A model generated the notes under the pieces. It made no database searches. It was not told the origin of the DNA and worked only from the letters and a program-made list of their open reading frames with translations. From a virus, in the IMG/VR virus record IMGVR_UViG_3300010224_000001, positions 224,001 to 288,000 of that record: a stretch of 64,000 nt of DNA, one strand, 5' to 3'. Below are positions 4,460-31,659 of the stretch, piece by piece. A program made the translations under genes and the position numbers. The stretch's first letter is position 1. Every line of letters starts with the position of its first letter.

Positions 4460-4940
4460 CGATCGTGTATGACCAGTTCTGATGCTTGTTAATCCTGGCT
4501 GTCCATTTCTCTAAAACGATGTCGTTGAAGTTCTCTGTCTTTACAGGAACAAGAGAATACGGTAAGTATCCTTTCAAAGTGCGCAAACCATACTCTTCAA
4601 TTTGTTCTTGAATGGTTTTTGAAAACGCTCTTGCGATCTCTCTGAAGTTACGTTTATCGTGCAGTTTACATTCTGCATCCACGTTTCCTTCACTGTCAAC
4701 TGACAGAGCATGATAAGGATAAGGTGGCAACCAGAGATTCATATCGGTTTTGATCAGCCAAGTGCGTGCTTTGCGTTCGGATTCACTGTAAATGTAAAGA
4801 GCGTCGATTAACTCGCTTACCTCTTTATTCAAACGACGACGCAGATATAGCTTCGGGCGTTCAGGGAACGATGCTTCAAGAATCTCTAGCATCGCTGGAT
4901 AGTTACCACCCGACGAGAGAACCAGTCTTTGTTTTTCCAT
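4443..4940 (-). CDS. hypothetical protein
   Basis: 165 aa ORF, AAGGAG SD. Confidence 0.65.
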   Translation of the reverse strand: MEKQRLVLSSGGNYPAMLEILEASFPERPKLYLRRRLNKEVSELIDALYIYSESERKARTWLIKTDMNLWLPPYPYHALSVDSEGNVDAECKLHDKRNFREIARAFSKTIQEQIEEYGLRTLKGYLPYSLVPVKTENFNDIVLEKWTARINKHQNWSYTIDEQPK

Positions 4941-5484: not shown

Positions 5485-6019
5485 CGCGCTTTTCCACCTT
5501 GCGCTCTTCAATTACACGCATGATACCAAACGGTCCCCGACCTTCTACGTCGTCTGTGAATTCACCGTTCTTCAGCCAGCCATGATAACCAGGCACAACA
5601 ATCGAAGGCATTGCAGTCAGATTCAAACCTTCGCCTGTAATCTTCCAACCTTCACCATTGGTTGCTACTTGGTCAATAATCCACATGGAACCATTTGGAC
5701 ACATCACACAAATCGGTGGACGTTTATGGGAATGCTCTAACCAATAGAAGCGCGATAACATCGTACCTTTAAACGTGCCATTTTGAATACGTTCTAAAGC
5801 TTTGGTGCGCCGTTCTTCATCATCAGGATTTTGCGGATCAAAGATCCACGGCGTATACCACATCGTACCTGGTTTGATGATCCGTGGATCGTCACGCCAA
5901 AACCCTTTCTCGATCGCTTCTTCATTTAATCGAGAATGCTCTTTATCAGTTAAGAGCGTATGTATTTTCAAAGCCATGATAACTCTCCTGTCCCGTAACA
6001 TAGGATCAGGAGAGGACAT
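5477..6019 (-). CDS. hypothetical protein, DUF6527-like C-terminus
   Basis: LTAMPSIVVPGYHGWLKNG. Confidence 0.5.
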   Translation of the reverse strand: MSSPDPMLRDRRVIMALKIHTLLTDKEHSRLNEEAIEKGFWRDDPRIIKPGTMWYTPWIFDPQNPDDEERRTKALERIQNGTFKGTMLSRFYWLEHSHKRPPICVMCPNGSMWIIDQVATNGEGWKITGEGLNLTAMPSIVVPGYHGWLKNGEFTDDVEGRGPFGIMRVIEERKVEKRDA

Positions 6020-6020
6020 G

Positions 6021-6413
6021 TTACTTCTGGAGTAAGAACGGCTTAAAGTAAGTCTCTAGCCATTCTTGGGGAAAGGGTTCGTCTGGTTTATCAACAGTAA
6101 ATGATTCGATCCACAGTTCGTCATTCTTAGGCGTATTGCGATGTCTGCCGTACAATGAAAGATTTTGATCACCTTCATTGATCTCAACATCAATGTAGTG
6201 TGTATCGTTATCCCAATAGACACCCGGCATATTCTTATCCATAGGACCGAAGTTGCCTTCATCATTACCGTACATGGGAATAGGTACAGATACAGACAAG
6301 CAAATCTTGTTAATGAAGTCTACCATCATCTTGCGTCTTAAATCCGTTAAGGGATAACTGTTCAATTCCTTTAACGTCACTTCTTTCGTACATACACGCT
6401 TTCCTAATGGCAT
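6021..6413 (-). CDS. hypothetical protein
   Basis: 130 aa ORF, AGGAGG SD. Confidence 0.65.
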   Translation of the reverse strand: MPLGKRVCTKEVTLKELNSYPLTDLRRKMMVDFINKICLSVSVPIPMYGNDEGNFGPMDKNMPGVYWDNDTHYIDVEINEGDQNLSLYGRHRNTPKNDELWIESFTVDKPDEPFPQEWLETYFKPFLLQK

Positions 6414-6481: not shown

Positions 6482-6765
6482 TTCAACACTAAGAAGGAAT
6501 ATGATTTTAGGTTCCAACGCCTTTTGATCAAAATCTTCTTAATGTTGAAACCTGGAGGAAGTTCCATGAATTTAACAGGAGTCTATCTCATGCTATTTTG
6601 TCTCGACTAATAGATACATAGCGTGTACTAAAAGGATCGAATGAGACGCGATAGGACGAGATTGCTTTAGCACTAAGCTAACTTCCAGTGAAAGGAGCTT
6701 CTATTAACCGCTGCTTGGAATCCAACTTTCAGCCAAAAGTTTAAAGGATTACGATTAATAGAAGC
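6482..6765 (-). ncRNA. candidate structured ncRNA (two long helices)
   Basis: 14-bp helix 6697-6710/6752-6765 and about 15-bp helix 6482-6496/6535-6549; no credible ORF. Confidence 0.4.
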
Positions 6766-6771
6766 GTGATC

Positions 6772-7062
6772 TTAAATTGCTAACAGGCTGAGTAATTTAG
6801 CGAGACGATCGTTCACATTGCAAATGCTAGTATCAAGTCGATTGATGCTCTCACCAAGGGGCGAATACATCGGACGATCTTTAGGCTGCTCTGTCGGCGC
6901 ATCTGTAACATAATCACCAGTCAATACTGGAACCAGACGTCTCTCTAAACGACCGATATTCTCCTGGAGAAGAGAAAGCGAATCACGGGCCAATTGCAAA
7001 CAACCATCGACTTCACTAACACGTACGGGTTCATCTAAGGGAATATCTGAAACACAAGCCAT
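6772..7062 (-). CDS. hypothetical coiled-coil protein
   Basis: 96 aa ORF. Confidence 0.6.
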   Translation of the reverse strand: MACVSDIPLDEPVRVSEVDGCLQLARDSLSLLQENIGRLERRLVPVLTGDYVTDAPTEQPKDRPMYSPLGESINRLDTSICNVNDRLAKLLSLLAI

Positions 7063-7092
7063 ATTCTTTTTCTTTCAAGATATTAAGGAAAA

Positions 7093-7168
<76 letters not shown>

Positions 7169-7175
7169 AAAAACT

Positions 7176-7484
7176 TTACCAGCTAATTACAGTGCAGAGA
7201 ATTCGCGGTAAAGTAGGGAAGAAATTATCACGAATTGTTTTCTCTACAAACGACACTTTGAAACCTAAGTCTTCAAGACGCAACTTAATAGCAATCATTG
7301 TCGTAGTTGCTTGAGGTCTTTCTTCCAACCCGCAACGAGTCGCACCAACACCTTCGGATAAGGTGAGTTCGGTCTTACCTTTTGTAGCGCTTTCTTTAAT
7401 CTTAGCTTCAAGATCCATCATGATGACGGTCAGTTGAACTTCAGATGTGTTCGTTAACTCACGAGCTTGTTTAGCGGTGATCAT
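7176..7484 (-). CDS. hypothetical protein
   Basis: 102 aa, MITAKQAREL start common in phage proteins. Confidence 0.65.
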   Translation of the reverse strand: MITAKQARELTNTSEVQLTVIMMDLEAKIKESATKGKTELTLSEGVGATRCGLEERPQATTTMIAIKLRLEDLGFKVSFVEKTIRDNFFPTLPRILCTVISW

Positions 7485-7504
7485 AATAAAGACTCAAGAA
7501 GAGT

Positions 7505-7581
7505 TGGTCTCCCGAACTGGGTTCGAACCAGTGACCCGCATCTTAGAAGGATGCTGCTCTATCCAACTGAGCTATCGGGAG
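7505..7581 (-). tRNA. tRNA-Arg(TCT)
   Basis: GCATC-CTTCTAA-GATGC anticodon arm, full cloverleaf, ACCA. Confidence 0.95.
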
Positions 7582-7589
7582 ACTGATAC

Positions 7590-7796
7590 TTAATAGTTAG
7601 AGAACTCGTTATACCACTTCTTGATAAGCGGCATTGAATCTTTGATCACGACTACAGCTACAAGGATGTTAACCAGCGGGACCAGAGCAATCACTGCTGT
7701 AACAATCAGCTGAAGTTTATTACGACGGTTGTTCCAATCGAGACCCAGCAGAATCAGAGTAACAACCAGGCAGAACCAATAGATAAAGGCAAGCAT
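7590..7796 (-). CDS. small membrane protein
   Basis: two hydrophobic segments, AAGGA SD. Confidence 0.6.
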   Translation of the reverse strand: MLAFIYWFCLVVTLILLGLDWNNRRNKLQLIVTAVIALVPLVNILVAVVVIKDSMPLIKKWYNEFSNY

Positions 7797-7812
7797 GATT
7801 TCCTTAATGTTT

Positions 7813-8007
7813 TTAATAGTATCGTTTGCTAGACTCAGAAAGCTTTTCAAACAGTCGATCAGTGGTTTCTTGAATACTCATGATCCAGTCTAGAGTGGTT
7901 TGCCGATCAGGTAACGGAATACCCGAATCAACCATCTCGTCGTACAGAGGAATTGCTCTAATCAATCGAGCGAGATTCTTTTGTGCTCTTTCTTTCATAG
8001 ACATCAT
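7813..8007 (-). CDS. hypothetical protein
   Basis: short ORF, GAGG SD. Confidence 0.5.
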   Translation of the reverse strand: MMSMKERAQKNLARLIRAIPLYDEMVDSGIPLPDRQTTLDWIMSIQETTDRLFEKLSESSKRYY

Positions 8008-8034
8008 AAGCTTCCTCTGTACGTAAAACACTTC

Positions 8035-8496
8035 TTAAGCTACGAACGAAGAAGCATGCTTGACTGCTTTAACCGCATCTTCATTTTTAAGCTTTGCCAT
8101 ACCAGCTAAGACTTCACCCAGAGCCGGAATGATTTGTGAATTCTTTTCTGCTGCGCGCACCAAGGCTGATGTGATATCGCCAAACTCTAACGTTATCAGA
8201 GCGGAAGTAGCAATATCTTCATCATTGAGTTCTTTGCCAGGTTCCAAAGAACAGGGGATATTGGTGCCACGCGAAGCAATAGTCTTGCCTGAATCGCTCA
8301 AGATATACACGTTGCCATGCATGAGGTATTCTTCAGGATCTTGCTCGGGATTGTGAATGATGCAAACGTCAAGATTATTCTGATTACGTTTAAACTCGAC
8401 TTTGCCACCATCCGGTAAGCTGATCAACTGAAAACCTTTATAAGGGCTCGAATCAGGCAGACTTTCATTCGACATCAACTTTACAAAACCAGCCAT
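8035..8496 (-). CDS. hypothetical protein
   Basis: start at MAGFVK after AGGAG SD. Confidence 0.65.
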   Translation of the reverse strand: MAGFVKLMSNESLPDSSPYKGFQLISLPDGGKVEFKRNQNNLDVCIIHNPEQDPEEYLMHGNVYILSDSGKTIASRGTNIPCSLEPGKELNDEDIATSALITLEFGDITSALVRAAEKNSQIIPALGEVLAGMAKLKNEDAVKAVKHASSFVA

Positions 8497-8577
8497 GTTA
8501 TTTCTCCTAGTACTAGTAAGTGGTATCTCTACCATGGTGATTTTAAATCTGTTCACCAACAGTGCTACAATGAAACT

Positions 8578-8662
8578 TGGTGGGCAGGGTTGGATTTGAA
8601 CCAACGAACCACGAGGGAGATGATTTACAGTCATCCGGGTTTAACCACTTCCCTACCTGCCC
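8578..8662 (-). tRNA. tRNA-Tyr(GTA)
   Basis: GATGA-CTGTAAA-TCATC, long variable arm, ACCA. Confidence 0.95.
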
Positions 8663-8669
8663 GAAACTT

Positions 8670-8867
8670 CTACTTGAATATCGCTGCGATAATCCAAGCT
8701 ACTAACGCAACAGCCAACGCAGGAATCGTCATGAACATTCTGGTTATACCACCACCCCAACGACCGTTTTCTTTAACAGGCCAATAATTCAACCATAAGA
8801 AAGCAATCACAGTTACTGCGGTAGGAATCATCCACCATGAAATCGATAACTCTAAGTGAATGTTCAT
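8670..8867 (-). CDS. small membrane protein
   Basis: 65 aa, two TM-like segments. Confidence 0.6.
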   Translation of the reverse strand: MNIHLELSISWWMIPTAVTVIAFLWLNYWPVKENGRWGGGITRMFMTIPALAVALVAWIIAAIFK

Positions 8868-8915
8868 TTGGTTATTCCCATAATCTTCAGATGTAAGATG
8901 CGTTGCTAGAATTCT

Positions 8916-8992
8916 TGGCTCCCCGACCTGGACTCGAACCAGGGACCTGCGGATTAACAGTCCGTCGCTACTACCAACTTAGCTATCAGGGA
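8916..8992 (-). tRNA. tRNA-Asn(GTT)
   Basis: CGGA-CTGTTAA-TCCG, G73, CCA. Confidence 0.95.
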
Positions 8993-9091
8993 ATACTACG
9001 GTCACATTGCTGTGAGATCTTTACTACAACTACGGGCTACTCATCACTTATGCATTTAGTATGAAGTATCCTTTATTACTGGAGTAACCTC

Positions 9092-9442
9092 ATGCCTGCT
9101 GCAAAGAAAAAAGATGTTTACATTCGCAACGCTAAAGTAATTCGCGTTGTTGACGGAGATACCGCTGAATTTAATGTCGATCTCGGTTGTGATATCCACA
9201 TTAACATGACTTGCCGTTTCAACGGTATTAATGCACCTGAAGTCAGTACTGACGAAGGCAAAGCTTCTAAGGTTTGGCTGCAGAACAAACTTCCACCAGA
9301 ACTGCCTGTTGTCATTCAAACTGTCGCAGATAAGAAAGAGAAGTACGGTCGATATTTAGCCGACGTTTACTTACCTGGCGCATCTACTAGTATCAATGAC
9401 GAGTTGGTGAATGAAGGTCTTGCCAAACCTTACAAACCTTAA
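9092..9442 (+). CDS. thermonuclease (SNase-like)
   Basis: VIRVVDGDT, RFNGINAPE, KYGRYLA, INDELVNEGLA. Confidence 0.9.
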   Translation: MPAAKKKDVYIRNAKVIRVVDGDTAEFNVDLGCDIHINMTCRFNGINAPEVSTDEGKASKVWLQNKLPPELPVVIQTVADKKEKYGRYLADVYLPGASTSINDELVNEGLAKPYKP

Positions 9443-9501
9443 AGCTACTACATCCCTTTAATCCTGACATGACGTTAGGGTTAGAGGGACTTATGACGTA
9501 T

Positions 9502-9591
9502 TGGCGGAAAGCTTGGGATTCGAACCCAAGGATAGATTGCTCCATCGCCGTCTTAGCAGGACGGTGCTTTAGACCACTCAGCCAGCTTTCC
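9502..9591 (-). tRNA. tRNA-Ser(GCT)
   Basis: CCGTC-CTGCTAA-GACGG, long variable arm, GCCA. Confidence 0.95.
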
Positions 9592-9602
9592 ACATTTACT
9601 AC

Positions 9603-9851
9603 TTAACCATGTGCTATTTTGTTCTGATAATCATTAGAGAACACATGCGGTTCACCAATCGATTTACGAGCCTGTTCAATTAGAGCATCTACGTTATCGT
9701 AATCGATGTAGTAGAAGGTTTGACCGTCTTTAACGCGATGTCGTGGCAACTTCTCTAAGTCTTTACAGAGTTTAATCAACGCGTCTTTAGCTGTAGTATC
9801 TGTAATTGGGAATTGGCCTTCCCCTGCAAAACTATCATTACTGAAACACAT
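9603..9851 (-). CDS. hypothetical protein
   Basis: start at MCFSND after GGAG SD. Confidence 0.55.
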   Translation of the reverse strand: MCFSNDSFAGEGQFPITDTTAKDALIKLCKDLEKLPRHRVKDGQTFYYIDYDNVDALIEQARKSIGEPHVFSNDYQNKIAHG

Positions 9852-9870
9852 GACTTCTCCGTAAAGTGTT

Positions 9871-10008
9871 TGGTCGGGCGTTCTTGGAATCGAACCAAGG
9901 ACCTTCGTCTTGTGGTGAGGTTCCCCTCTGGCCGATCGCCTAAGCGGTCGCATCCGCCGAAGCGAATGGAATATTGGACGATGCTCTACCGAACTGAGCT
10001 AAACCCCG
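9871..10008 (-). ncRNA. tRNA-scaffold RNA 1 (67-nt three-hairpin cargo in anticodon loop)
   Basis: acceptor CGGGGTT/AAC(G)CCCG, D arm GCTC/GAGC, stem TCGTC/GACGA around 9910-9976, T arm, ACCA. Confidence 0.85.
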
Positions 10009-10016
10009 TAAGTCTT

Positions 10017-10691
10017 TCAACCTTTTGCTACTAGTGTAAACTCAACAGGTTTGCCATCTGGTAAGAATACACTCTCAGCGTAGGTGAACATGTAAAACTT
10101 GTCAGCAGGATCCCATTTCTCATCATCCATTTTGTACATTGCAAACACTAACTCGTGAGTAATGTGTAAACAACGATTGGCTAACTTGGAGAACTCAGCA
10201 CTGACAATGATGTTACCGTAGGAGTAAGTAGTACCTTTATCCCACGAGAACGACATTGGCTTTTCTGGAGCATAACTCCATTTATCACCAGGCTTGGCTT
10301 TCTTGTATCGTTCAGTTATACCAGCGTCTTGCTGACCTGGATTAATTTTGAAACCACGATACAGCAATGGATGATTCGGAGGACGTTGAATCGATTCAAA
10401 GACTTTTTTAGCTTCTCGAAGTTTATCTAAGAGACTGTAATCAGTAACAGACACCCACTGATCAACAGCTTGAAGAAGTTCTTTGTGCTGCAACATCTTT
10501 TCAACGATCTTCATGTCTACATCTTCTTTCTGGAATGCCAGTTGAGGCGTGTATCCAAAAAGTTTTATTAAGCGCATCAGAATTTTCTTCTTCCACTCAG
10601 CTTCTTTGTAGACTTCGTTGAAGTTTGCTTCTTTCTCTAGACTGACAGAATTATCTGTAATCCAGTCTATATAAACAGGTTTAGTCGTCAT
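10017..10691 (-). CDS. putative ADP-ribosyltransferase-fold protein
   Basis: R-S-E type signature: LLYRG, MSFSW, YAESV. Confidence 0.45.
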   Translation of the reverse strand: MTTKPVYIDWITDNSVSLEKEANFNEVYKEAEWKKKILMRLIKLFGYTPQLAFQKEDVDMKIVEKMLQHKELLQAVDQWVSVTDYSLLDKLREAKKVFESIQRPPNHPLLYRGFKINPGQQDAGITERYKKAKPGDKWSYAPEKPMSFSWDKGTTYSYGNIIVSAEFSKLANRCLHITHELVFAMYKMDDEKWDPADKFYMFTYAESVFLPDGKPVEFTLVAKG

Positions 10692-10752
10692 GGTTTACCG
10701 TTACAAATGAGGGTGATAATCATAGTAATTGGTGAGACTAAACCTGTTGAAT

Positions 10753-10917
10753 TGGTGGGACGTTCCTAGATTTGAACTAGGGACCTCGATCTAGTTTAGA
10801 TGGAACCTGATTAGGGTTCTGCCTTTAACCACTCGGCCATACCTCCTAACGGAGATAGAGGGATTCGAACCCTCGGATCTTTGGTTGATCGCGCTCTAAC
10901 CGCTGAGCTAAACTCCC
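10753..10917 (-). ncRNA. tRNA-scaffold RNA 2 (permuted Ser-like tRNA nested via its variable arm)
   Basis: outer GGGAGTT/AAC(G)TCCC-ACCA; insert 10792-10886 has T arm, GTTA-closed acceptor, D arm, anticodon arm. Confidence 0.9.
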
Positions 10918-10938
10918 GGATACTTCTACTACAATGTT

Positions 10939-11110
10939 TGGTGGAGCGATGCAAGATTCGAACTTGCGACCTCTGTCTAAGCTTTGACTAGCAGGATTGT
11001 GCTCTAACCATCTGAGCTACTAACGGACGTTGACACCCGTTAGATCGGACTTGAACCGATGACCCCAATCGTGAATAAGACAGCGTTCTACCTGACTGAA
11101 CTAATCCCCC
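10939..11110 (-). ncRNA. tRNA-scaffold RNA 3 (permuted tRNA nested anticodon-to-anticodon)
   Basis: outer GGGGGAT/ATC(G)CTCC-ACCA; insert 10978-11078 has T arm, closed acceptor CTAACGG/CCGTTAG, D arm. Confidence 0.9.
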
Positions 11111-11128
11111 ATGTACTACTTTGAAACT

Positions 11129-11288
11129 TGGTGGAGCGATCTAGGAATCGAACCTAGGACCTCTGCCTGAGTCGAATGCTCTACCAGCTGAGCTACCGAT
11201 AAGTAACGAAGTGTTACCTACCGAGCGGGACTCGAACCCGCGACCCGTCGATTAGAATGGCAGCGCTCTATCACTGAGCTAATCCCCC
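11129..11288 (-). ncRNA. tRNA-scaffold RNA 4 (permuted tRNA nested anticodon-to-anticodon)
   Basis: outer GGGGGAT/ATC(G)CTCC-ACCA; insert 11168-11258 has T arm, 12-bp closed acceptor, D arm. Confidence 0.9.
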
Positions 11289-11307
11289 GCAAACTGCTTT
11301 GTGAAAC

Positions 11308-11437
11308 TGGTAGGGCGCTTCTGGATTTTAACCAGAGACCTCCGTCTAGTTAACCAATAACCACACCCCCGTTGGGAGGTACGGCTGGACTTGAACCAGC
11401 GATTTGACGGCGCTCTAACAGGCTGAGCTAAGCCCCT
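11308..11437 (-). ncRNA. tRNA-scaffold RNA 5 (minimal T-acceptor-D module nested)
   Basis: outer AGGGGCT/AGC(G)CCCT-ACCA; insert 11347-11405. Confidence 0.85.
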
Positions 11438-11446
11438 AATGAAACT

Positions 11447-11617
11447 TTACTTAAGAACACACATTAAAGTGATGCTCTGCTTTTTATCACTGTTAGCAAT
11501 CTTCGCATTCTTAGTAGCTTCGATGCATTGCTCCCAGCTTTGCATCGGAAACTCTTTCTGATCTATACTCCAACCATCGGAATGGATCCAGATAAGAAAT
11601 ACTGCTAATGCCTTCAT
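11447..11617 (-). CDS. small hypothetical protein (56 aa)
   Basis: MKALAVFLIWIH...WEQCIEA...LMCVLK read by hand; not in the supplied ORF track. Confidence 0.5.
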   Translation of the reverse strand: MKALAVFLIWIHSDGWSIDQKEFPMQSWEQCIEATKNAKIANSDKKQSITLMCVLK

Positions 11618-11638
11618 GTCAATGATCTTTCTATTCGT

Positions 11639-11894
11639 TAGTGGAGAGATTGCGGGAGTTCAACCCGCGACTTTGATGGAACCCTAAAGCTGCAGCACTT
11701 GGTTTAGTTAAAGGTGAGTTACGATAATTTACCGCACTTGACCACCCAAAGCTTATGCATAAAACCCAAACTGTAAGAAAACCATGAAAGAAAACTTACA
11801 GAGGTTTTATAGAAGGTAACCTACAAACTTTAGAAGTATAATCTGCACCGAAGCCTTCCGCCAAGAAGGAGTCTTGCTTCTCGACTATCTCTCC
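11639..11894 (-). ncRNA. 256-nt tRNA-like RNA with 183-nt variable arm
   Basis: GGAGAGA/TCTCTCC-ACTA, D arm GTC/GAC, CCTTC/GAAGG arm, T arm GCGGG-TTGAACT-CCCGC. Confidence 0.75.
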
Positions 11895-11912
11895 CAAGAG
11901 AACTTAATCTCT

Positions 11913-11940
11913 TGCACATTATGGGAAGTACGTGTAATTT
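11913..11940 (-). promoter_or_regulatory. putative promoter of the tRNA-like RNA cluster
   Basis: AAATTAC-N9-CCATAATGTGCA; TTAC-N9-CCATAATGTGCA recurs at 33166-33190. Confidence 0.55.
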
Positions 11941-11947
11941 TTTACTT

Positions 11948-12403
11948 TTAGACAACTATTTGACCGATAGCGATCCGTTGCTTGGTCTTAGCTAAACGAG
12001 GTCCAAAGTGGTTGAGCCATTTTACAGTAGCTATGCGAAGGTGACGTGTTCGGCATTCTTCGTTATACTCACCTTTAAAAGCTGCTTCTTGGTAAGTATT
12101 ACGAATAGTCCAAACGTTGTGTTTCCACACCTCCACAGTAAAGCTACCGAGCTGACTTAACTCAAGAGCAAGTTCATACGAGCACTCGAAAGCAATATAG
12201 AAACCGTAAGGATGACCTTCACAAGAGAAACGGGTTTTAGCACCGAGTTCTTCTAGTGCCAAGATGAAGAAATTCACACCTGGTTCCAGCGTTGAAACTG
12301 GATATGTAATCTCTACACTTTCAAAGCCGCGCTCAAGCTTAAGTTTACAAGCTTGATCCCAGGGATGTTCTGACATAATCGCCGGACCATTAATGAATGA
12401 CAT
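11948..12403 (-). CDS. hypothetical protein with TYW3-like T..SC.GH motif
   Basis: LEPGVNFFILALEELGAKTRFSCEGH. Confidence 0.45.
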   Translation of the reverse strand: MSFINGPAIMSEHPWDQACKLKLERGFESVEITYPVSTLEPGVNFFILALEELGAKTRFSCEGHPYGFYIAFECSYELALELSQLGSFTVEVWKHNVWTIRNTYQEAAFKGEYNEECRTRHLRIATVKWLNHFGPRLAKTKQRIAIGQIVV

Positions 12404-12816
12404 TATTTCACCTTGACTTTATCGAAACACTCATGAAGATCCTGGGAAGAACGACCACTTTCCCAATCGATGATAAGCCAGCGTTCACCATTACGATGTT
12501 CTCGGATATATTTCTCCACTACTTTACCAGGCGTATTGATCGCGGAGATAAGTTCCAGACCTTCGCAGATTTTTTCATACGGCATCTGGGACAATGGTTT
12601 GCCTGAATAGTCGGTTGTTTCAACCACGACGATATCTGCGCAATCGCCTTCGTTATGGCGTGTCCACTTACCGTTATCCCAATCTACGTGAATCTCTTTA
12701 GCTTGAGTAGTAAAGCGAACAATGCCTTCTTCTTTCTCTGCATTGGCTACTCGTAAATCGGTCGTGATTTGAGCGATAGGGATTTCCGACAATTTCTTAC
12801 CTACAAGTTGTTCCAT
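12403..12816 (-). CDS. hypothetical protein
   Basis: 137 aa ORF. Confidence 0.6.
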   Translation of the reverse strand: MEQLVGKKLSEIPIAQITTDLRVANAEKEEGIVRFTTQAKEIHVDWDNGKWTRHNEGDCADIVVVETTDYSGKPLSQMPYEKICEGLELISAINTPGKVVEKYIREHRNGERWLIIDWESGRSSQDLHECFDKVKVK

Positions 12817-22906: not shown

Positions 22907-22991
22907 TAGTGCCGGGAACGGGACTCGAACCCGTAAGCCTTGCGGCGGCGGATTTTAAATCCGCTCCCTTTACCAATTTGAGCACCCCGGC
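22907..22991 (-). tRNA. tRNA-Leu(TAA), 3' end ACTA
   Basis: GCGGA-TTTAAAA-TCCGC, long V arm; CCA not encoded. Confidence 0.85.
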
Positions 22992-23091
22992 ACTATAACC
23001 CCTATTGTCATGCTCCCACTAAACTTTACTGCATCATCCTTCTTCTCAAACTATTAGCGTAAGTTGTAAAAAATTACTTAATAGCAACTGT

Positions 23092-31559: not shown

Positions 31560-31651
31560 TGGAACGGAAGCGGTGGGATTCGAACCCACGGATGGTTTAA
31601 CCCACCGGCAGTTTTCAAGACTGCTGCCTTAAACCCCTCGGCCACGCTTCC
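31560..31651 (-). tRNA. tRNA-Ser(TGA), 3' end G-TT-CCA
   Basis: GCAGT-CTTGAAA-ACTGC, long V arm. Confidence 0.9.
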
Positions 31652-31659
31652 ATTGATCT

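Follow-up and report, generated by a model that had tools for sequence, protein, structure and literature searches.

What does a virus encode in a gap free of open reading frames (ORFs) at the head of its tRNA gene array, where the DNA can be drawn as a tRNA holding a very large insert? The locus lies at positions 11639–11894 of the 64,000-nt window, i.e. the whole stretch of DNA analysed here, which comprises bases 224001–288000 of the IMG/VR record IMGVR_UViG_3300010224_000001, a 322,570-bp virus genome with direct terminal repeats. Among its genes are those of a chimallin-like ‘nuclear shell protein’ (phrog_4795, E 3.7e-22), of NAD-salvage enzymes and of an RNase H, and the virus is a jumbo phage. 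Read on the minus strand, from 11894 to 11639, the gap would specify a 256-nt RNA. The explanation that we prefer, and to which we give about an even chance, is that it is the gene of a stable, non-decoding, tRNA-framed RNA that would be excised and finished by tRNA-processing enzymes, with the tRNA frame as the handle and an inserted 183-nt domain as the cargo. RNA positions are numbered from G1 (window position 11894), RNA position p corresponding to window position 11895 − p, and the coordinates of all features are compiled in Table 1.

The acceptor strands GGAGAGA (1–7) and UCUCUCC (246–252) are complementary throughout and are extended to 8 bp by U8–A245, all eight pairs being of the Watson–Crick type. 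Base-pair probabilities derived from the partition function were 0.90–1.00 for the acceptor, 1.00 for the T stem and 0.81–1.00 for the two inner hairpin helices of the insert, and the 7-bp acceptor (1–7/246–252) and the 5-bp T stem (227–231/239–243) with its 7-nt loop, both expected of a tRNA, paired at 0.98–1.00. The folding model thus firmly predicts that the 8-bp acceptor and the canonical T arm bring both ends of the RNA together. Just 5′ of the T arm, it likewise predicts the emergence of the 183-nt multi-hairpin domain, closed by a 10-bp helix in which CUUCGGUG (42–49) and CAUCAAAG (217–224) form seven pairs and one C·A mismatch, and to which the minimum free energy (MFE) structure adds G40–C226 and G41·U225. 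Nested within it are the helices CUAAAG/CUUUAG (62–67/206–211), AUAAAACC/GGUUUUAU (85–92/129–136) and CUGUAAG/CUUACAG (94–100/118–124). The segment between the acceptor and the closing helix can form a 3-bp D arm and a 5-bp arm with a 6-nt loop; judged from its sequence, such a loop cannot present a normal anticodon, and the RNA would be non-decoding.

An earlier note on this DNA had described these helices and ends, and all of them were found when the minus strand was read. Its proposal of a large foreign domain placed at the site of the class II extra arm, 3′ of the anticodon-like arm and 5′ of the T arm, is supported by the pair probabilities together with the shortened-variant calls and controls described below. 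The D and anticodon-like arms that it had drawn are present as sequences and are also drawn by ARAGORN on shortened variants, but energy folding gives them a probability of 0.00 and prefers a single 9-bp hairpin. The note had further proposed a swapped C19–G56 pair. The bases themselves are there, the D loop having GC where tRNAs have G18G19 and the T loop having a G at position 56, but selection for such a pair does not follow from one sequence with a roughly 1-in-4 chance of complementarity.

The minus strand folded with an MFE of −80.4 kcal/mol (z −3.72), which was equalled by only one of 200 shuffled sequences, and was better by 14.7 kcal/mol than the plus strand (−65.7 kcal/mol, z −2.91). 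A motif scan of the genome for a T-arm-like hairpin and, 0–2 nt beyond it, a strand able to form a perfect 7-bp helix with a sequence at most 400 nt upstream, returned seven loci, all on the minus strand, namely six ARAGORN tRNAs and the locus of the 256-nt RNA. When the same scan was run on 20 simulated second-order Markov genomes, the mean was 0.35 matches, with any match in 5 of the 20; a chance match within a tRNA array of a few kb and on the correct strand is therefore unlikely, and we estimate it to be of the order of 0.3%. The cloverleaf was approached by insert shortening, for which 812 in silico deletion variants of the 183-nt insert were given to ARAGORN. At 95% of its threshold, 132 of the 812 were called as a tRNA beginning at G1, with a parse consisting of the D arm of the earlier note, the 5-bp arm with its 6-nt loop (‘anticodon’ gg) and the T arm. 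The same 812 variants made from each of 150 random genome segments did not lead to a single call (0/150 segments). As ARAGORN calls variants of this RNA and none in the controls, the cloverleaf is near threshold yet not random and, like the acceptor and the T arm, clearly exceeds what chance would give.

A near relative of the locus was found as short assembled contigs in runs X1 and X2, which belong to one study and represent one lineage, with 233 of the 256 RNA bases covered. Two changes had occurred in these 233 bases versus 18–19 in 509 flanking bases (Fisher p = 0.03, or 0.10 if a single unlocated change of the upstream contig falls within the RNA). The two changes, T>C at 11674 and G>A at 11675 as read on the plus strand, convert CAUCAAAG to CAUUGAAG and are both situated in the closing helix, where C45·A221 would become a C–G pair, mending the only mismatch, and G46–C220 would become G·U. 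They are supportive and not proof, because the 5′ strand of this helix (11846–11853) lies outside the coverage. In the 21-nt spacer between the 256-nt RNA and the following 56-aa ORF, the relative carries a 2-nt insertion, and the single change within the 56-aa ORF is synonymous on codon reading. Runs X3 and X4 yielded matches only to host-like tRNA pieces of neighbouring elements and none to the 256-nt RNA.

Alignment of the 3′ part of the RNA, CAUC-AAAGUC-GCGGGUUGAACUCCCGC-AA, with CAUC-AGGUC-GCGGGUUCGAGCCCUGC-AA of the phage tRNA-Thr gave 24 identical columns out of 30, and the T arm is identical at 17 of 20 bases to the inner T arm of elC, one of the neighbouring tRNA-like scaffold genes (el0–elD); on these two alignments, the RNA looks derived from the tRNA genes of the phage. 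CAUC forms the 3′ strand of the anticodon stem in tRNA-Thr, and the 3′ part of the 256-nt RNA aligns with that strand, the variable loop and the T arm. The insert may therefore have begun as an insertion into the anticodon loop, like those of the neighbours, and such an origin would weaken the notion of a separate ‘variable-arm class’. The acceptor stem GGAGAGA, for its part, may stem from a tRNA-Ser like that of E. coli.

No CCA is encoded at the 3′ end, the sequence being ACTA rather than ACCA, as the earlier note had also read it. A CCA is encoded by every one of the 10 tRNA and scaffold genes in the array and by a tRNA-Met elsewhere in the window, that is, by 11 of 13 inspected genes. The tRNA-Leu(UAA) gene (22909–22991, minus strand) is followed by A-CUA, the same ending as that of the 256-nt RNA, and the tRNA-Ser(UGA) gene has no encoded CCA either (sites 22909–22993 for Leu and 31564–31652 for Ser, minus strand). 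The phage possesses a 414-aa protein that matches NF008137, ‘multifunctional CCA addition/repair protein’, with 463.1 bits (cut-off 451) and is of full length, with PolyA_pol and HD domains (genome C1:200997–201341; L026:607–1851, minus strand), as well as an RtcB RNA ligase (432 bits; genome C1:191211–192338, minus strand). Since the phage has a CCA enzyme of its own and two of its ordinary tRNAs are likewise without CCA, the lack of an encoded CCA should be no problem for it.

Upstream of the RNA, the AT-rich motif AAAGTAAAAAATTAC overlaps the stop codon of a 151-aa ORF. With up to two mismatches it occurs at six sites of the genome, four of them on the minus strand in the fuller form YTAAAGTAAAAAAWTAY, and a near-identical motif precedes the tRNA clusters of Ralstonia phage RP12 and of a related jumbo phage, G002. 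The promoters of the virion RNA polymerase (RNAP) of phiKZ-related phages are described in passages of PMC5312081 as extended, highly conserved and AT-rich, with a start site 6 nt downstream in two phages. By analogy, AAAGTAAAAAATTAC may be a virion-RNAP promoter, which would leave a leader of ∼34 nt that includes the hairpin at 11914–11895. This hairpin holds AGAGAUU, an alternative perfect partner for AAUCUCU (244–250). Scans for sigma-70 promoters and intrinsic terminators gave 4 and 2 sites versus 2.1 and 1.3 expected, none of which was convincing for the 256-nt RNA. The cluster-head regions of RP12, of G002 and of a further related jumbo phage, G001, shared nothing in blastn beyond the upstream AT-rich motif. 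Between this motif and the first tRNA, RP12 (L018:5095–5425) and G002 (L033:3335–3728) have closed structured RNAs of 330–390 nt with z scores of −3.2 and −3.8, which have no T arm, belong to no family and show no sequence similarity to the 256-nt RNA.

According to the preferred explanation, the 256-nt RNA would be transcribed from the AT-rich motif ∼40 nt upstream as the first unit of a tRNA operon, freed by RNase P cleavage at G1, trimmed to A253 and then supplied with CCA by the CCA-adding/repair enzyme of the phage. The tRNA frame would act as a handle for maturation and stability, and possibly as a surface for tRNA-binding proteins, while the insert would be the working part.

By Rfam and ARAGORN, the 256-nt RNA belongs to no catalogued RNA family. 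The earlier note had asked for an Rfam check, and this gave no confident match to transfer-messenger RNA (tmRNA) or to any other family: the only match overlapping the RNA was tmRNA (RF00023) with 12.9 bits versus a gathering score of 47, covering just the T arm and acceptor (11651–11687). The 183-nt insert had no Rfam match at E values up to 10. A group I intron (RF00028) was rejected, as no Rfam match was obtained at E up to 10 in 6500–12500 and removal of the insert still leaves a 6-nt loop, and so was YrlA (RF02553), with no match overlapping 11639–11894 and no Ro/TROVE protein (PF05731) in the phage genome. ARAGORN with introns allowed reported nothing at the default or 90% thresholds; a ‘tRNA-Cys with 183-nt intron’ parsed at 85% was poor, began in the leader and was dismissed as spurious. 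Two hallmarks of an ordinary tRNA are missing: the T stem is not stacked directly on the acceptor, A244/A245 lying between them, and the loop UUGGCG has 6 nt in place of a 7-nt anticodon loop with U33. The class II layout, with an extra helix before the T arm and a 3-bp D stem, is drawn by ARAGORN on shortened variants only, and an arm of 183 nt is far beyond the known range. Among possible antisense targets in the phage genome, the best was a 14-mer at E 0.25. The ‘second scaffold class’ of the earlier note would have a single member so far, none further having come to light in this genome, in the three related jumbo phages or in any collection scanned.

Several results weigh against the preferred explanation. 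The native sequence received neither an ARAGORN call nor an Rfam call at gathering score, none of the 812 shortened variants was called at the default ARAGORN threshold, and the parse of those called at 95% required a shifted, mismatched acceptor register with G·A and A·A. The D and anticodon-like stems have pair probabilities of 0.00, the energy model favouring the 9-bp hairpin 10–18/27–35, and A244/A245, unpaired or mispaired, split the T stem from the 7-bp acceptor, a stack that is continuous in tRNAs. The helix CUAAAG/CUUUAG and the closing helix reach a probability of only about 0.45, as they compete with pairing of GAAGG (37–41) to a second CCUUC (79–83), seen in the centroid structure. 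Folded alone, the 183-nt insert is modestly structured (−42.8 kcal/mol, z −2.01, equalled by 7 of 200 shuffles). The contigs of the near relative are the only comparative data, with one lineage and one unlocated change, and offer no covariation, and six sites of the AT-rich motif in a whole genome are few for a general promoter. As to homologues, a blastn query of 601 nt had no match in INPHARED, and BLAST of the RNA against the related jumbo phages G001–G003 gave a best E value of 0.2 and no homologue. The T-arm 17-mer had 16 matches in IMG/VR, 13 of them chance occurrences in unrelated sequence; a 20-mer had seven in the JGI metagenomes, of which two were contigs of the L004 family described below, four a single bacterial tRNA-Gly locus and one a coding region; a 19-mer had nine in GTDB genomes, none in a tRNA-like context by eye; and a degenerate pattern of T arm, AA and ACTA found only the L004 family in IMG/VR. 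The evidence base is thus a single locus and one close relative, with no distant homologue in the collections searched, and we infer transcription, the RNA ends, RNase P cleavage and CCA addition from sequence.

Four other explanations were weighed. The same gene with the same ends could fold as a four-way junction, in which the 9-bp hairpin replaces the D arm and the 10-bp closing helix with its 165-nt top replaces the anticodon arm, so that there would be no separate V-arm class. We consider this unlikely but well worth keeping in view: the 9-bp hairpin has a probability of 0.99–1.00 and is part of the MFE structure, CAUC and AAGUC 5′ of the T stem align with tRNA-Thr at the 3′ strand of its anticodon stem and at its variable loop, and the cargo site would match that of el0–elD, which hold their inserts in the anticodon loop. 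It is opposed by the five-arm cloverleaf that ARAGORN recognizes in shortened variants and never in controls, and by the five-arm register, which under the usual position rules puts U8, A14, G18, A21, and C19 opposite G56, at tRNA positions; moreover, energy models often misfold genuine tRNAs. Whether five-armed or four-armed, the fold would retain its acceptor, its T arm and the large closed domain. A decaying tRNA gene that has acquired junk, and from which no stable RNA or a useless one is expressed, would account for the 6-nt loop, the 3-bp D stem, the AA spacer, the missing CCA, the z of just −2.0 for the insert alone and the failure of the searches to find a family or distant homologue. 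It is improbable in our view, since the near relative has fewer changes here than in the flanking genes and both of them keep or repair helix pairing, all long helices are intact, and RP12 and G002 hold a closed structured RNA (330–390 nt, z −3.2 and −3.8) in the same place.

Slightly less credit still is due to a structured 5′ leader acting in cis, whether for the tRNA operon or for the 56-aa ORF, and serving in 5′-end protection or as a processing guide, with its tRNA likeness incidental or a mere cleavage signal. The position between a candidate promoter motif and the first downstream genes would suit such a leader, as would the start of the 56-aa ORF 21 nt after the RNA, the synonymous nature of its lone change in the relative and the absence of a T arm from the closed structures that are the positional analogues in RP12 and G002. 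Against it, the acceptor, the T arm and the cloverleaf exceed chance expectation by a wide margin and are just what would trigger excision by tRNA-processing enzymes, whereby the RNA would become a separate molecule. A divergent phage tmRNA, charged at its 3′ end, entering stalled ribosomes and switching translation to an internal tag frame, is the sole family to which Rfam pointed, and the end topology of acceptor, long helix and T arm is that of tmRNA; huge phages are reported to encode tmRNAs in part of PMC7162821. A 16-codon frame, GCA...CUG UAA, is readable by eye at RNA 49–99, starting right after the closing helix and ending in a hairpin stem, but no pseudoknot precedes it. Its tag would end in KPL, which to our knowledge is unlike known tmRNA tags. 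Position 3-70 is A3–U250 and not the G3·U70 pair required for alanine charging of tmRNA. The Rfam score of 12.9 versus 47 bits comes from the T arm and acceptor only, ARAGORN in tmRNA mode was blank even at an 80% threshold, and SmpB (PF01668) is absent from the 322-kb phage genome by a search that recovered it in 10 of 14 reference genomes as a control, a host SmpB being possible. Membership in the tmRNA family was rejected on the sub-threshold score, the missing ARAGORN call, the 3-70 pair and the missing phage SmpB, and we regard this explanation as very improbable. The share left after the preferred explanation and these four goes to chance.

A wider interpretation, to which we assign only a small probability, would make the 256-nt RNA a natural carrier RNA of a nucleus-forming jumbo phage. 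Its body would be that of a class II-type tRNA with an extra arm grown into a functional domain of 183 nt, RNase P would mature it, the Cca of the phage would supply the 3′ CCA, and its tRNA shape would serve charging, export or as a decoy. This shape could allow charging by a synthetase that ignores the anticodon, could permit the use of tRNA routes out of the phage nucleus, or could decoy host immune nucleases that cut tRNAs; defences that target tRNAs are dealt with in parts of PMC11555353, PMC12851939 and PMC12445682.

Table 1. Features of the 256-nt RNA locus and related sites (window coordinates unless a genome or contig is named)
Feature	Position	Strand	Remarks
Entire tRNA-shaped RNA	11639..11894	−	256 nt; G1 = 11894, last A = 11639; ends as proposed from sequence
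Acceptor 5′ strand GGAGAGAU (RNA 1–8)	11887..11894	−	pairs with 245–252, probability 0.90–1.00
Acceptor 3′ strand AUCUCUCC (RNA 245–252)	11643..11650	−	A244 (11651) unpaired; locus matched in genome motif scan
A253 (discriminator position) and CUA where CCA is expected	11639..11642	−	sequence
D-like arm GUC-GAGAAGCAA-GAC (RNA 10–24)	11871..11885	−	3 bp; loop GC at 18–19; drawn by ARAGORN on shortened variant
Anticodon-like arm CCUUC-UUGGCG-GAAGG (RNA 26–41)	11854..11869	−	6-nt loop; two-letter ARAGORN ‘anticodon’ (gg)
Competing 9-bp hairpin GUCGAGAAG/CUUCUUGGC (RNA 10–18/27–35)	11860..11885	−	probability 0.99–1.00; in MFE structure
Inserted domain, 183 nt (RNA 42–224)	11671..11853	−	closed by CUUCGGUG/CAUCAAAG
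Closing helix, 5′ strand GGCUUCGGUG (RNA 40–49)	11846..11855	−	MFE pairs 40–44/222–226 and 46–49/217–220
Closing helix, 3′ strand CAUCAAAGUC (RNA 217–226)	11669..11678	−	carries both near-relative changes (11674, 11675)
Long hairpin AUAAAACC...GGUUUUAU (RNA 85–136) enclosing CUGUAAG/CUUACAG (94–124)	11759..11810	−	probabilities 0.81–1.00
Irregular hairpin GGGUGGU...ACUCACCU (about RNA 148–183)	11712..11747	−	MFE and centroid structures
T arm GCGGG-UUGAACU-CCCGC (RNA 227–243)	11652..11668	−	T stem probability 1.00; G at position 56
5′ leader hairpin CAAGAGA-UUAAGU-UCUCUUG	11895..11914	−	20 nt, abuts G1; fold with leader, gap-0 match in motif scan
AT-rich motif AAAGTAAAAAATTAC	11934..11948	−	candidate phage promoter; ends 39 nt before G1
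AT-rich motif AAAGTAAAAAAWTAC, common to three phages	11934–11948; genome C1 63492, 127631, 312268; L018 about 5078; L033 about 3315	window and C1 sites −	candidate virion-RNAP promoter
Neighbour scaffolds el0–elD	9871–11437	−	five long tRNA-like genes of 138, 165, 172, 160 and 130 nt

ARAGORN finds nine tRNAs in the whole genome, all of them inside the window and on the minus strand, and the earlier note was right in placing the 256-nt RNA at the head of the cluster, as it is the 5′-most unit of an array with 10 co-oriented tRNA/scaffold genes 3′ of it. Downstream follow the 56-aa ORF (11447–11617), the start codon of which lies 21 nt past the 3′ end of the RNA, the scaffolds elD to elA, a 224-aa ORF, el0 and the tRNAs Ser, Asn, Tyr, Arg and Thr. 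Common to all five scaffolds are a consensus D arm, an AGGUC variable loop, a T arm and an encoded ACCA, with 59–101 nt replacing the anticodon loop in each, and in Rfam they give tRNA matches and weak YrlA matches (YrlA at 10970–11245). Several of their inserts resemble a permuted second tRNA, and the outer frame of elD (11308–11437, minus strand), with its D-loop GU and T-loop UUA, could hold a second 19-56 swap in the same array. The words TTAAGT and AGTAGAAGT recur by eye 5–15 nt 5′ of many tRNA and scaffold starts (7090–11440, minus strand); TTAAGT is present in the leader of the 256-nt RNA too, and these words may mark a processing or start signal.

Searches of Pfam and PHROGs with the 151-, 137-, 224- and 56-aa neighbour products returned only phrog_29772 and phrog_26819 (function unassigned). 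The sole named match was that of a 116-aa ORF on the opposite strand inside the tRNA array (9092–9442, plus strand), which resembles staphylococcal nuclease (PF00565, E 1.1e-08). The protein of one neighbouring gene was best matched in Ralstonia phages RP12 and RP31 (44%). Counterparts of a neighbouring protein are known from further relatives, namely P0001 on a 14.9-kb contig (91% identity) and P0002–P0013 (58–74%). INPHARED contained no close relative of the 322,570-bp phage, and the 151-aa, 224-aa and chimallin-like proteins, each used singly as a query against IMG/VR, brought up no relatives.

The L004 family consists of a candidate small RNA of 125–155 nt in three phage contigs of 62–112 kb (L004:8040–8163, L006:2824–2960 and L017:3009–3161, the last on the minus strand), in which 22 bases across the T arm, AA spacer and ACUA end are identical to the 256-nt RNA. 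It is the sole other IMG/VR match of the extended pattern and has no Rfam match; its ends pair over 6 bp with G-C/G·U variation. A terminator-like hairpin and a sigma-factor-like gene precede the candidate; by eye, it has a promoter of the sigma-70 type, and the ORF fragments downstream of it resemble a TnpB remnant. The bacterial tRNA-Gly(GCC) recovered above (L020, about 6133–6206, plus strand; also L021–L023) has exactly this T arm, including G56, and a D loop without GG, and the adjoining tRNA-Asp has an A at position 56; an ordinary tRNA can therefore have an unusual 19-56 pair.

That additional stable RNAs can be housed in the tRNA clusters of phages is long established, RNAC and RNAD of T4 being the example given in PMC3014915. 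Non-coding tRNA-like RNAs in such clusters are nothing new, and it is the size and position of the insert that are unusual here. The 256-nt RNA is much larger and clearly tRNA-framed, and it heads an array of tRNA-scaffolded RNAs in a genome that also has a CCA-repair enzyme and RtcB. If it is expressed and processed as proposed, tRNA frames would be natural carriers for other RNA domains, and the RNA would offer a defined molecule for probing three ideas, namely the decoying of tRNA-targeting defences, charging that does not depend on the anticodon, and RNA export from the phage nucleus. Should the carrier interpretation hold, the RNA and the neighbouring scaffolds would represent a new route by which phages produce and use non-coding RNAs. 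With such an array around it, the locus deserves an experiment.

With known systems, the 256-nt RNA shares features in varying degrees. The tmRNAs (RF00023) resemble it in the paired ends that form an acceptor adjoining a T arm and in a long helix round a large internal domain, and 256 nt falls in the lower tmRNA size range; it differs from them in its extra D-like and anticodon-like hairpins, the lack of G3·U70 and the lack of a phage SmpB. YrlA is also a non-coding RNA with a tRNA-like module, but the 256-nt RNA has no YrlA match and the phage no Ro protein, and YrlA, as far as we know, is without free acceptor ends. Engineered tRNA scaffolds for recombinant RNA are man-made and carry the insert in the anticodon stem, and their frame gives processing and stability as proposed here. 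Similar tRNA frames with inserts adjoin ordinary tRNAs in RP12 (L018:5426–5533 and about 5640–5745), G001 (L032, about 3170–2915, minus strand) and G002 (L033:4280–4340 and 4780–4870), one of those in RP12 giving an Rfam tRNA match over 108 nt with 35.8 bits. Scaffolds of this design are therefore not confined to the present phage. In G002, a 145-aa ORF with an HNH match (L033:3772–4209, plus strand; PF01844, E 1.7e-05) lies between what appear to be two halves of a tRNA gene. RP12 has ∼900 nt without an annotated gene or Rfam match upstream of its homologue of the 224-aa ORF, ending in a terminator-like hairpin (L018:7050–7960). A non-exhaustive literature search brought up no phage tRNA-like RNA that is described as having an extra arm of more than 100 nt.

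Class II tRNAs (Ser, Leu, Tyr) and the long-arm allo-tRNAs, the latter as treated in part of PMC5389517, would have the five-arm layout in common with the 256-nt RNA, with a 3-bp D stem and an extra helix before the T arm, if it folds as ARAGORN draws its shortened variants; relative to class II tRNAs, it has an extra arm of 183 nt (theirs being roughly 10–25 nt), a 6-nt anticodon loop, the AA spacer, G56 and no encoded CCA. RNAC and RNAD of T4 are about half its size. They are likewise phage RNAs inside a tRNA gene cluster, described in sections of PMC3014915 as small stable RNAs from the T4 tRNA region with unexplained roles, and the comparison with them is one of description and not of sequence. 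The neighbours el0–elD, on the same strand and in the same operon, have in common with it a tRNA frame round a foreign RNA, whereas the 256-nt RNA lacks their consensus D arm, AGGUC, UUCRA T loop and ACCA and carries a larger insert that is placed just 5′ of the T arm. Nearest in kind to the 256-nt RNA are thus the class II tRNAs in their layout, RNAC and RNAD of T4, and the neighbouring scaffolds.

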